IMG/VR virus record: IMGVR_UViG_2671180357_000001
Span: 1-30,616 of that record
DNA: 30,616 nucleotides
Reading direction: 5' to 3' (one strand)
From: a virus
Lineage: Duplodnaviria; Heunggongvirae; Uroviricota; Caudoviricetes
Position numbers and translations under genes: made by a program. This document shows, one piece after another, positions 21,597 through 26,161 of the stretch (positions are counted from its first letter, which is position 1; every line of letters begins with the position of its first letter). A model generated the notes under the pieces. The model had not been told where the DNA came from. It made no database searches and worked only from the letters and a program-made list of their open reading frames with translations.

Positions 21597-23477
21597 TTAA
21601 TACTCCGTCACGTTTTCCTGTCGCCACGCCTCGTCATATTCCGATTTCGGCATATTGGCGATGTAGCTATATGGAGATCCTGATTCAAGTTGCAGGAACT
21701 GGTGCGATTGCTCGTCAAGGAACAACGGGACACCACCTTCCCAACCTTCGCCGTTACGTTGTTTTTCAAGCATCAAAACAGATGCCGGAGATGCCAGTAG
21801 CTGTTCGTCCTTCTCTGACATTTTTTCACCACTCTGAACTCTCTGTAACGCTCTCTCGCGAGCCTTGTTACGCCAGATGATGAAAAGGTTGTCTGTCAGG
21901 TCTGTTATCGCTCCAGAGCCTTTTACGTCCATTTTCCCGGTTGGTTTTTCTTCGCTGTCTCCTTTTCGCGAGTGAGTAACGAGAATGACGTGGGAGTTTG
22001 TTTTGTTTTTGAAGTCGCAAATCGAGTCAACAAACGCCTTCTGCCCGTTATAGTCATCGTCGCCTATGCCACATTTCATCAGGCTGTCGATGATGAATAA
22101 CTGGATCCCGTATCGGCGGCGAGCGTAGTCGAATATTTCGATCAGCCTGTCGGCTTTCGCCGTTCCGGTCAGGCCAAACACCCAAAGTCTTTCGTCATAA
22201 AATTTAAATGCAGAGTCAATTTCCAGCACTGGCGGCATCTTGCAGCACGTCGCCTGACGGGTAAGGCGCTTAAGGAGAATACCAGGCTTCAGCTCAAGTG
22301 ACGCGATGCACGTCTTCACACCCTGACGCATTGCCTCAAGTGCCATATGCCCGACAACCTCCGTTTTTCCGTGACCGTTCACACCATTGACCAGCGTCAA
22401 CTCGGCCTCACGGAACTGGAATTTATCTGCCAGAGATTCCCACGGTGGATTAAACAGATACTGCTGCTTGCCGTAGAAAGCGTTGATAGTGTCCTGGTAA
22501 AACTCTCGCGCGCTGTAGAGTTCTTCAGGATCGAAGTAGGATGCCGTGCCAATGTACTGCCAGATTTCATCCTCGGTAACACCGTTCATCAGGCATTCGT
22601 TGATGTCTTTGTACGGCAGAGTAACAAGACGGCAACGATGTTCACCGAGTCGGCTTGCGATTTCCCTTGCGGCTTCACGACCAACATCATCAACGTCCAT
22701 CGAGATAAATATTTCCTCAAACCTGTCGAGGTTGTGATACTCAAACTCAATCCACTGCTGCTTAGCGCCTTTCCCGCCACCAAACGGCACGGATAACGCC
22801 GAGATGCCGTATTGCGCATAGCTCATACAATCAATTTCGCCTTCGCAAAGTACAACTGCCCTCACGCCAGCGTCCAGAGCCTGCCATCCGAACAGACAAG
22901 GTTCGCAATCACCTTCTGCCATAATGACTTTCTTCCCGTCCGGGCGCTCAGTGCTGATTCGCTTGACCTGCAACAACTCACCATCGCGTTTGTACGGAAT
23001 CACCAGAGCATCCAGTTCCCGCTCTCCATTCCACACCTTGCCGCTGACAACCTCGTAGCGCTTTACGACTTCTGGCGATATGCCACGCGATTGCAGGTAC
23101 TCAAGATGGGATTCTGTCCTGGTAACGTAGCGGGCGATTTTCTTGCGATCAGGTCTGGAGAATTTCTTCTCACGTTTGGCATCGAAATGGTGATCGTCAT
23201 CCTTGATTCCGAGAAATGCTTTCGCTTCCTGCATCGCCTGATGCAGGTTAATTCCACGACATGCCATCCACAAATCAAGCATGTCACCGCCGTCTCCCTC
23301 AGCGAAATCAGCCCATTTTTTCTTGCCGCTAAGGTTGACCTTAAGGCTGTTTCCCTTGTCACCGTTGACGTTACCGGCAACCCACTCATGCCCCTCTTTC
23401 TTGCCGTTTGGCAACAGGTGCGGAGCCACCCTGTCAACCTGCGCCCAAAGCAGGTCGCTAAGTTCACTTGGCCTCAT
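21597..23477 (-). CDS. Bifunctional DNA primase/replicative helicase
   Basis: 626 aa; N-terminal zinc-binding/toprim-like region and C-terminal helicase with Walker A GVNGHGKT; occupies the lambda P / P22 gene 12 position. Confidence 0.8.
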   Translation of the reverse strand: MRPSELSDLLWAQVDRVAPHLLPNGKKEGHEWVAGNVNGDKGNSLKVNLSGKKKWADFAEGDGGDMLDLWMACRGINLHQAMQEAKAFLGIKDDDHHFDAKREKKFSRPDRKKIARYVTRTESHLEYLQSRGISPEVVKRYEVVSGKVWNGERELDALVIPYKRDGELLQVKRISTERPDGKKVIMAEGDCEPCLFGWQALDAGVRAVVLCEGEIDCMSYAQYGISALSVPFGGGKGAKQQWIEFEYHNLDRFEEIFISMDVDDVGREAAREIASRLGEHRCRLVTLPYKDINECLMNGVTEDEIWQYIGTASYFDPEELYSAREFYQDTINAFYGKQQYLFNPPWESLADKFQFREAELTLVNGVNGHGKTEVVGHMALEAMRQGVKTCIASLELKPGILLKRLTRQATCCKMPPVLEIDSAFKFYDERLWVFGLTGTAKADRLIEIFDYARRRYGIQLFIIDSLMKCGIGDDDYNGQKAFVDSICDFKNKTNSHVILVTHSRKGDSEEKPTGKMDVKGSGAITDLTDNLFIIWRNKARERALQRVQSGEKMSEKDEQLLASPASVLMLEKQRNGEGWEGGVPLFLDEQSHQFLQLESGSPYSYIANMPKSEYDEAWRQENVTEY

Positions 23478-23584
23478 GATTCCCTCAGATTGAGATTTTT
23501 AAACCAGAAATCGACAAACGAAATACTTAACCAGCCGTGGTTATAACCAGCGACCAGTAGCGATTTGATTTTTGATTTCATGGT

Positions 23585-24445
23585 TCACCTGTCGAAAAAC
23601 ACGTAGCCAGTTTTCGATACGGTGATTGCGGATGATGGTTTGGATTGTGGTTGAATAGTTTCTGGCTTCTCGTCGTTCCAGCGCTGACCGTTCAGGTAGC
23701 TCGATGGTAACAACCTGTCGAATCCGAACTGCTTACCATTCCTGCATGCGATGTCTTCTGCCAGCATCGTGGCAAACTCGCTTGCCGTACCCCTGGTAGT
23801 TTTACGCCATTCCCTGAACTGTGTTCTGAATGCCGAAGCTGCGTTTTTCTTCCCGGCTTTCCGCATGCCTGCACACCAGAATATTTCCTCGAATGCCTTG
23901 TCGGTTTCTTCGTGACGGTCAGATGATTTTTCACACTCCGTCCGAACACTTTCGGACATAGTGTTTTTATTATTTCTTTTTTCTTTTGTAATAGTTTCTT
24001 TTGTGTGTCCCTGTTTTGGTGACAGCGCTGTCACCGTTTTGGTGACACTTTTTGTCACCAATGCAGTGACATTATCACCAGAGTAGTGACACCCTTCGAT
24101 TTGCCATTCCTCGATGTTCTTGTTAGGCCCGATTTGCTGGCCTTCGCGAAGGATTACCTTCATCGCGATAAGCTCATTCTTGGCCTTGTTTACCTTCTGT
24201 CTTGGCAGCCTGGTAATTTGAGCTAACTGACTATCAGAGATGCGATCCATCTTTTTACCGTAGCCGTATGTTTTACGGCATATGGCGTGGGCAACCTTGC
24301 TCTGATTTTTCGTTAAATCTGCGCCGATAAGCTCTTCATACAGGGCATTTGCAAGACGGGTATAACCATCTTCAACTTCTGCCACACGACGCTCCACAGG
24401 CCGTTGTGAAGGCCTTAAATGTGTTACGGTTGCAAGATTACTCAT
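23585..24445 (-). CDS. O: Replication initiator, lambda O-like N-terminal domain
   Basis: N-terminal region ([53 protein letters not shown]) resembles recalled lambda O; origin iterons lie inside the gene. Confidence 0.8.
23957..24075. promoter_or_regulatory. Replication origin: palindromic GGTGACA/TGTCACC iterons plus adjacent AT-rich region, inside the O gene
   Basis: Perfect 18-bp palindrome GGTGACAGCGCTGTCACC, a 19-bp GGTGACACTTTTTGTCACC and further half-sites, followed on the O coding strand by an AT-rich stretch. Confidence 0.6.
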
Positions 24446-24584
24446 GACCTTTCTCCTTCTGCATCAGCTTCACTTTTTCCAACTCAGCCCGGAATCGACC
24501 AGGCTGCTTGAAGCTGGACAGGAAGCGATCACGTAGTATGTGTTTGTGAATTTTGTCCTGGTAAGGACTGAGTTGTTTTGTCAT
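24438..24584 (-). CDS. Small basic hypothetical protein (48 aa) between cII and O
   Basis: [48 protein letters not shown]; AGGAG 5 nt upstream of the ATG; 3' end overlaps the O start. Confidence 0.4.
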
Positions 24585-24616
24585 AATGACTCCTGTGGAT
24601 TGATCCAGTAATTACC

Positions 24617-24913
24617 TCAGAATTGCATATCAATTTGCTTAAAATCCTCGGTGGCGGCCGGGGATTTTTTCTTTGTGATTTCATCAAGCGCATACTTAAA
24701 AGCCCTGCTAATCGGACTGATGTCTGATGCCATTCCGAAAGCACACAAGACCGAAGCAATAAATCTCCAGTCCGTTCTGCTTATCTTCGATTCATGACAG
24801 CCAATCATCTTTGCCAAACCGCGCTGGGTAAGCGTTGACAGGTTGATGAGTAAATCTGTTTCTGCGCGATCAACGTCGCGCTGTGATAGTTTGCTGTAAC
24901 TTGTTTGTTCCAT
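24617..24913 (-). CDS. cII: CII-like transcriptional activator
   Basis: 98 aa; HTH region and C-terminal KKKSPAATEDFKQIDMQF resemble recalled lambda CII. Confidence 0.75.
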   Translation of the reverse strand: MEQTSYSKLSQRDVDRAETDLLINLSTLTQRGLAKMIGCHESKISRTDWRFIASVLCAFGMASDISPISRAFKYALDEITKKKSPAATEDFKQIDMQF

Positions 24914-25264: not shown

Positions 25265-25293
25265 ATAATACGATATGTACTTTTGGAATGCAA
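25265..25293 (-). promoter_or_regulatory. pR candidate promoter (TTGCAT-N17-TATTAT) driving cro
   Basis: Minus-strand -35/-10 hexamers with 17-nt spacer; the spacer closely resembles the pL spacer. Confidence 0.5.
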
Positions 25294-25340
25294 ACAAAAA
25301 ATACATCTTGTGCATGGATGGTTTTAGTACAGAGCGTAAT
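25267..25340. promoter_or_regulatory. oR: three candidate 15-bp repressor operator sites (about 25267-25281, 25300-25314, 25326-25340)
   Basis: 6-3-6 sites of the form A(A/G)TACA-N3-(C/T)GT..., e.g. AATACGATATGTACT; the same motif recurs three times at oL. Confidence 0.5.
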
Positions 25341-25355
25341 AATAAGGATATGAAG

Positions 25356-26009
25356 ATGAAATGGTATGAACTGGCTAGATCCAGAATGAAAGAACTCGGC
25401 ATAACTCAAGAGAAGTTAGCTGAAGAGCTTGGTATGACGCAGGGTGGAATTGGTCACTGGTTGCGCGGATCTCGTCATCCATCTCTTGACGAGATTGGTG
25501 TGGTGTTTAAATACCTTGGTATTGATAACGTCTCATTCAACCACGACGGTACATTTTCACCTGTTGGCGAATACTCATCTGCCCCCGTTAAAAAACAATA
25601 TGAGTACCCTGTTTTTTCTCATGTTCAGGCCGGGATGTTCTCGCCTGAGCTTAGAACCTTTACCAAAGGTGATGCGGAGAGATGGGTCAGCACAACCAAA
25701 AAAGCCAGTGATTGTGCGTTTTGGCTTGAAGTTGAAGGTAATTCCATGACCGCACCAACAGGATCCAAGCCAAGCTTTCCTGACGGGATGTTAATTCTCG
25801 TTGACCCTGAGCAGGCTGTTGAGCCAGGTGATTTCTGCATAGCCAGACTTGGTGGTGACGAGTTTACCTTCAAGAAACTGATCAGGGATAGCGGTCAGGT
25901 GTTCCTACAACCACTAAACCCGCAATATCCAATGATCCCATGCAATGATAGCTGTTCCGTAGTAGGGAAAGTTATCGCCAGCCAGTGGCCTGAAGAGACA
26001 TTTAGTTAA
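25356..26009 (+). CDS. cI: CI-type prophage repressor (S24 LexA-like autopeptidase); C-terminal domain lambda cI-like, N-terminal HTH domain distinct
   Basis: ORF 25275..26009 trimmed to Met28; residues from [21 protein letters not shown] to the end are near-identical to recalled lambda cI, including the Ala-Gly cleavage site; N-terminal HTH differs. Confidence 0.85.
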
Positions 26010-26069: not shown

Positions 26070-26088
26070 CCAAAATATAAATCAATAA

Positions 26089-26161
26089 AATACAAAGTGT
26101 TATAAAAAACTAACCACATTTAGAACATTTTGTATTGACTCAATAAAGTACACATCGTACT
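26089..26161. promoter_or_regulatory. oL: three candidate 15-bp operator sites (about 26089-26103, 26122-26136, 26147-26161)
   Basis: AATACAAAGTGTTAT, AGAACATTTTGTATT and AGTACACATCGTACT; the last overlaps the pL spacer and -10 and matches an oR site at 13 of 15 positions. Confidence 0.5.

Follow-up and report, generated by a model that had tools for sequence, protein, structure and literature searches.

The O-like initiator gene of the phage DNA analysed here very probably contains a functional lambda-type replication origin, situated in the linker-coding part of the initiator's own gene. The stretch under study, hereafter the window, comprises 30,616 nucleotides, and the whole element, including a palindrome beyond its AT-rich block, occupies approximately positions 23933-24091. 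Its anatomy, its positional and sequence homology to the lambda ori and the co-inheritance of its parts all point to this function, and from these likenesses binding by the initiator, unwinding and helicase recruitment can be predicted. Judging from sequence, the arrangement is a textbook one that already exists almost base for base in published genomes. What is new here is apparently only the iteron sequence, that is, the specificity class, and we found no description of a TGTCACC-N5-GGTGACA iteron class in the literature. An earlier note on this DNA had proposed an origin at 23957-24075; it designated the right region, but its end at 24075 truncates the iteron at 24073-24091.

The window represents an E. 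coli phage or prophage of P22-like or lambdoid kind, and as a whole it matches most closely the phages E212, vB_EcoP-720R6, CUS-3, Sf101 and similar. The O-like gene belongs to an early-right (pR-type) operon on the minus strand, which begins with a cro-like HTH ORF upstream of cII and continues with cII itself (24617-24913, PF05269), a small DUF2740 ORF (24438-24590), O, a 35-aa ORF, a primase-helicase gene, DUF7301 and NinB. An S24 repressor gene (cI-like, 25275-26009) is divergent from this operon. The gene order cro-cII-O within a pR operon thus places the element where a lambda-type ori is located, and its activation by transcription is predicted.

Two further features of this operon deserve mention. 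The DUF2740 ORF (minus strand), which is similar to P22 orf48 and HK97 gp53 and overlaps the start of O, carries the label 'tail protein' in both PHROGs and RefSeq; because it sits in the early-right operon, this label is almost certainly a propagated misannotation. We also detected a homologue of the lambda oop antisense RNA on the plus strand (24597-24673, with its promoter region at about 24578-24596), which overlaps the 3' end of cII. It is 87% identical to the oop strand of lambda and has both the pO -10 element (TCATAAT) and the terminator hairpin (24641-24668); Rfam contains no family for it.

The initiator itself (23585-24445, minus strand, 286 aa) matches the Pfam family Phage_rep_O (PF04492, E 1.1e-37, residues 20-114), as expected from the earlier note, which had called it O-like. 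Residues 1-180 correspond to PHROG 277 ('replication initiation O-like') and residues 157-286 to phrog_33384. The protein appears as a mosaic of a predicted N-terminal origin-binding domain (about aa 1-118) and a predicted partner-specific C-terminal domain (about aa 166-286), joined by a linker (about aa 119-165) that is encoded by the ori. The C-terminal domain is of the type found in phage ES18; it is covered by phrog_33384 and has no Pfam family. The iterons take up codons 119-147, between the two mosaic domains. A sequence search of the PDB returned no solved relative of O.

The repeat unit is TGTCACC-N5-GGTGACA, present in four 19-bp dyad-symmetric copies that all have a 5-nt spacer. Counted along the O coding strand (minus), these are iteron 1 (TGTCACTACTCTGGTGATA, 24073-24091, two mismatches to the consensus), iteron 2 (TGTCACTGCATTGGTGACA, 24053-24071, one mismatch), iteron 3 (TGTCACCAAAACGGTGACA, 24029-24047, a perfect dyad with no mismatch) and iteron 4 (TGTCACCAAAACAGGGACA, 24006-24024, two mismatches), whose right half is degenerate. 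Iterons 1 and 4 are the degenerate members of the array. Their starts lie 20, 24 and 23 bp apart, or roughly two helical turns, and the half-sites, beginning at 24006, 24018, 24029, 24041, 24053, 24065, 24073 and 24085, alternate in orientation. Allowing up to three mismatches, the 19-mer has seven matches in the window where 1.13 are expected, a number reached by no shuffle, and four of the seven are adjacent (24006-24091). A stretch of 96 bp holds eight half-sites with at most one mismatch, where 0.23 would be expected (Poisson 1.4e-10), a count that includes one at 24087, which overlaps another and is no iteron half-site, and excludes the degenerate one at 24006. The degenerate right half of iteron 4 belongs to a block common to lambda and ES18 (CAAAACAGGG..ACACAAAAGA), and it is there that identity to ES18 starts. 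This half (CAAAACAGGGACA) is nearer to that of lambda ITN4 (CAAAACAGGGGGA) than to the window's own consensus.

An Rfam scan of the whole window matched no family, so no RNA element accounts for the repeats. Separately, a promoter and terminator scan flagged the iteron palindromes as 'terminator-like' on the plus strand; we rejected these candidates, which lie on the antisense strand of O and whose T-runs are the iteron spacers and the AT-rich block.

The same origin can be read in another register, that of the earlier note, in which O would bind GGTGACA-N4/5-TGTCACC palindromes (24018-24035 and 24041-24059) and the outer half-sites would be orphans. The palindromes of the note exist: the 18-bp GGTGACAGCGCTGTCACC at 24018-24035 is perfect, with overlapping 11-nt arms that are 100% complementary, and the 19-bp GGTGACACTTTTTGTCACC at 24041-24059 has 7/7 complementary arms; the further half-sites that it mentioned are also present (24065, 24073, 24085). 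These are indeed the two most perfect palindromes of the region. As repeat units, however, they are out of register and straddle neighbouring iterons; the spacers of this register measure 4, 5 and 1 nt and two half-sites lack a partner, against four units with 5-nt spacers in the TGTCACC-N5-GGTGACA register. In the lambda reference genome (NC_001416), ITN1-4 are annotated at 39034-39118, and the ori, made up of ITN1-4 and the AT-rich region, occupies 39034-39160, within gene O. Relative to the beginning of a 107-nt block that extends just beyond a conserved CACAAAAGA motif, the iterons of the window begin at offsets 19, 39, 63 and 86, which are exactly the offsets of the annotated ITN1-4. Lambda carries the same out-of-register palindrome (GAGGGATAAAACATCCCTC) between ITN2 and ITN3, at offset 51 as GGTGACACTTTTTGTCACC in the window, yet the units annotated there as bound by O are ITN1-4, whose positions match those of the TGTCACC-N5-GGTGACA units. 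Because of this lambda precedent, the two palindromes are best regarded as a geometric consequence of tightly packed dyad iterons and not as binding units, and we consider the alternative register quite improbable.

In the register of four TGTCACC-N5-GGTGACA iterons, the last one is directly followed by a 48-bp putative unwinding region (CACAAAAGAAACTATTACAAAAGAAAAAAGAAATAATAAAAACAC, 23958-24005, minus strand), A-rich on the O strand. Its GC content falls to 17.5% in a 40-bp window, and on the O coding strand A makes up 31 of 46 nt. Only one 40-mer of the 30.6-kb window is less stable than the one in this block, which lies about 4 SD above the mean stability and which, alone among the six least stable 40-mers, falls within a long gene. 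This composition and stability agree with the AT-rich stretch that had been proposed next to the repeats on the O coding strand. The least stable and most AT-rich 40-mer of the window (26072-26112) is intergenic, just downstream of the cI-like repressor gene. The ACACAAAAGA start of the block is also kept in P22, mEp213, phiEt88, Proteus phage V3 and Midgardsormr38. Just past the AT-rich block lies an imperfect palindrome (23933-23964, core GTCCGAA-AGTG-TTCGGAC) with 14-nt arms that are 86% complementary; it contains a 7-pair stem at 23940-23957 and is common to ES18.

The next large gene after O encodes a fused primase-helicase of 626 aa (21597-23477, minus strand) similar to T7 gp4 and Twinkle, and we found no homologue of P after O in the window. 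This is the pairing that had been anticipated, with a primase-helicase in place of a P-type loader. The protein combines a Toprim domain (Toprim_2, E 3e-12, residues 209-296) with an SF4 helicase domain (AAA_25/DnaB_C, residues 355-594) and matches phrog_239 ('DNA primase/helicase', E 2.5e-171). Among structures in the PDB, residues 191-539 align with T7 gp4 (5ikn, E 2.6e-23; 6n7i; 1q57; E values from 1e-21 to 1e-23), and the alignment with Twinkle (8e2l, E 6e-14) starts from residue 165. No Pfam family matched residues 1-204 even at E<=1, the first 180 residues or so hold only one Cys, and the Cys4 zinc ribbon of T7 gp4 is not detectable in the first 190 or so. Since no zinc ribbon is detectable, primase activity of this protein, and hence independence from DnaG, is uncertain. 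The acidic motifs of the Toprim domain look intact. Metazoan Twinkle offers a precedent for a member of this family without a zinc finger.

Between O and the primase-helicase gene lies the 35-aa ORF (MKSKIKSLLVAGYNHGWLSISFVDFWFKNLNLRES, 23474-23581, minus strand), a homologue of ES18 gp60 (phrog_21848, E 4e-26). It was matched in 78 loci, in 77 of which it is full-length or one residue short, and it travels with the primase-helicase module. This small protein could be an adaptor.

By megablast, the relatives of the left half of O differ from those of its right half. The window combines a TGTCACC-type N-domain and iterons with an ES18-type C-domain and the primase-helicase; PhiR12_1 has the same N-domain and iterons with the lambda C-domain and P; ES18 has the lambda N-domain and iterons with the ES18-type C-domain and primase-helicase; and lambda has its own N-domain, iterons, C-domain and P. 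All four combinations of N- and C-domain thus exist, and therefore the iterons follow the N-domain and the helicase partner follows the C-domain, which on sequence grounds corresponds to the classical two-domain model of O. PhiR12_1 is 100% identical to the window from the start of O down to about 23970, and ES18 is 83-100% identical to it from about 24025 through the O stop codon and on into the primase-helicase gene. Protein alignment and identity profiles place the mosaic breakpoints within 24025-23970, which corresponds to the AT-rich block and the right half of iteron 4. These two elements are common to all lambdoid O types, and this shared core of the ori appears to serve as a homology patch for module exchange.

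The same co-inheritance was seen among viral contigs. In IMG/VR, the iterons and AT-rich block are kept, in 10 sequence variants, in all 80 contigs whose N-domain is 99-100% identical to that of the window, although these loci are almost identical and their conservation carries little statistical weight. An ES18-type C-domain is accompanied by the primase-helicase in 72 of the 80, and a further contig joins a lambda-type C-domain to P, which brings the concordant loci to 72 + 1. An ES18-type C-domain for which no partner gene was found accounts for six more, and the remaining contig gave no match. Among complete E. coli genomes, the O allele is present at a coverage of at least 80% in 170 of 5426 (about 3%).

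The viral contig scan returned only N-domains of 99-100% identity and hence no covariation, and more divergent relatives were therefore drawn from a phage collection. At 59-65% identity these relatives have four iterons in the same place, with changes that affect both half-sites symmetrically. Proteus phage vB_BPM-V3 has four TGTCACC-N5-GGTGACA iterons and a DnaB-type helicase as partner; its iterons are 81% identical to those of the window, against 65% for the DNA coding for the N-domain. The Erwinia phages Midgardsormr38 (locus 2520-2600) and phiEt88 (locus 2860-2940) each have four TGTTACC-N5-GGTAACA units, a symmetric change of one base, and Citrobacter phage Omnitron (locus 2400-2500) has four iterons with TGTATCC/GGGAACA half-sites. 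These symmetric changes add to the 2x2 mosaic and the concordant viral loci as evidence that the iterons are inherited with the N-domain and the partner with the C-domain.

These data also bear on the idea that the iterons in O are a vestige, and that phages with a primase-helicase start replication elsewhere, for example at a transcription-dependent or helicase-specific site, with O having another role or none. T7-type gp4 proteins load themselves on single-stranded DNA, and T7 uses promoter-linked origins, both of which would suit such a scheme. We also found no experimental origin mapping for ES18-type modules in the literature; more generally, the searchable literature, to which the original ES18 paper does not belong, holds genome-annotation statements and no experiments on TGTCACC-N5-GGTGACA iterons or on modules of O and primase-helicase. 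Against this, every one of the 80 viral loci, and likewise 170 E. coli genomes, has inherited an intact O together with intact iterons and an intact AT-rich block, and comparison with Proteus V3 shows stronger conservation of the iterons than of the coding DNA around them. In addition, partner protein and type of O C-domain go together, and this implies that O and its partner interact functionally. A vestigial role therefore seems extremely improbable to us. That the repeats have no function at the DNA level, being either a chance cluster or a coding artefact of a V-T-K peptide repeat in the O linker, can practically be dismissed: the encoded linker peptide is repetitive, but frame analysis rules out the peptide explanation, as the starts of the four units are distributed over three codon positions (1, 3, 3 and 2) and the units are therefore DNA-level repeats, dyad symmetry is a property of DNA, the homologous positions of lambda hold unrelated iterons that encode another peptide, and a chance cluster has a Poisson probability of about 1e-10.

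For a functional lambda-type origin within O, homology to lambda suggests that dimers of the O N-domain would bind the four TGTCACC-N5-GGTGACA iterons and assemble an 'O-some'. This complex would destabilise the adjoining 48-bp AT-rich block, on supercoiled DNA under transcription from pR, and the O C-terminal domain would then bring in the replicative helicase. In lambda, the counterpart of this last step proceeds via P, which hijacks the host DnaB. Because the ES18-type C-domain is co-inherited with a T7 gp4-like primase-helicase, it would most likely recruit the phage's own enzyme to the opened AT-rich DNA, possibly helped by the 35-aa ORF. Initiation would then be independent of P, and probably also of DnaB, DnaC and DnaG.

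Concerning the recruitment step, co-inheritance leads us to lean slightly towards the view that the O C-domain recruits the primase-helicase directly, although the 35-aa ORF or some host factor may act as an adaptor between the C-domain and the helicase. A more specific proposal, for which we see the chances as about even, is that the ES18-type C-domain is itself a dedicated adaptor. It would load a zinc-finger-less gp4/Twinkle-like primase-helicase directly at a lambda-type origin, bypassing P, DnaB/DnaC, remodelling by DnaK/DnaJ/GrpE and perhaps DnaG, with the 35-aa ORF maybe as a third component. If this is true, the natural 2x2 domain swaps would make the interface easy to map, and the TGTCACC-N5-GGTGACA class with its one-base variant TGTTACC/GGTAACA would provide a simple system for the recognition code of the O N-domain.

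The value of these results is mostly one of annotation, as they place the origin of a common P22-like/lambdoid prophage module at 23933-24091 and give its iteron consensus; a specialist in phage replication would find nothing surprising here. Nevertheless, the swaps between the window, PhiR12_1, ES18 and lambda illustrate the two-domain logic of O cleanly. They are also ready material for studying how a primase-helicase that is complete in itself, and not P with DnaB, takes over the origin opened by a lambda-type initiator. Likewise, the TGTTACC/GGTAACA and TGTATCC/GGGAACA variants form a short series of natural variants from which the DNA-recognition code of the O N-domain could be read.

Among known systems, the Salmonella phage ES18 (AY736146) has the same type of module. 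Its O-like gene 59 contains an annotated rep_origin (37998-38082), described in the record as 'similar to lambda ori', and lies near gp60 and gp61, the latter a 'putative primase/helicase; similar to phage T7 gene 4'. At the DNA level, the C-terminal half of O, the AT-rich block and adjoining palindrome, the 35-aa ORF and the primase-helicase gene are 92-95% identical between ES18 and the window, but ES18 has a lambda-type N-domain with lambda-type iterons where the window has the TGTCACC type. The phages epsilon34 and g341c and the Anderson typing phages STMP5/17 group with the ES18 replication module, and modules of O and primase-helicase of this kind have been described for epsilon34 (PMC2629481) and the Anderson typing phages (PMC10307801). 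The module of the window itself is found in Sf101, mEp043, SEN22 and vB_EcoP-720R6, where O, the iterons and the primase-helicase gene are 98-99.8% identical to it in DNA sequence. PhiR12_1-5 share its N-domain and iterons (98-99.8% DNA identity over O and the iterons) but have the lambda C-domain and P. The Sf101 and PhiR12_1 records that we inspected carry no annotated origin, and the Sf101 paper says only that its replication module resembles that of mEp043. The accessible portions of two reports on the 'Eru' replication types of Stx phages (PMC8044961, PMC8951638) gave no match to the module of the window, Eru1-3 being without O and P.

The plan of iterons followed by ACACAAAAGA... AT-rich DNA within an O-like gene is also that of P22 gene 18 (BK000583, rep_origin 32840-32984) and of the HK97/mEp213-type and phiEt88-type O genes. 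Their iterons differ from those of the window, being TTTACC..GGTAAA in P22, TTAGCT-type in mEp213 and TGTTACC-N5-GGTAACA in phiEt88, and the partner in these three modules is a DnaB-type helicase, unlike in the window. It was previously reported that lambda, P22 and L each have their own iterons inside an O-like gene (PMC8022706).

Lambda remains the closest model for the origin itself. There, O binds four iterons, an O-some forms and unwinding needs the AT-rich tract (PMC7466680, PMC3349717, PMC8022706). The lambda ori likewise occupies the linker-coding middle of a Phage_rep_O gene, has four dyad iterons of about 19 bp and lies in the pR operon, where it is preceded by cII and an oop-like antisense RNA. 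Its AT-rich block (ACACAAAAGAnACTATTACAAAAGAAAAAAGAAA) is almost base for base that of the window, with a similar A-strand bias, and to its right lies a different palindrome in the place taken by 23933-23964 in the window. The Phage_rep_O match and the position-for-position alignment with ITN1-4 and the AT-rich region thus bear out the lambda ori-in-O arrangement that the earlier note had recognized. The differences concern specificity and partner: the half-sites are TCCCTC/GAGGGA in lambda and TGTCACC/GGTGACA in the window, the O N-domains are 53% identical and the C-domains unrelated in sequence, and the partner is P in lambda and a gp4-like primase-helicase in the window.
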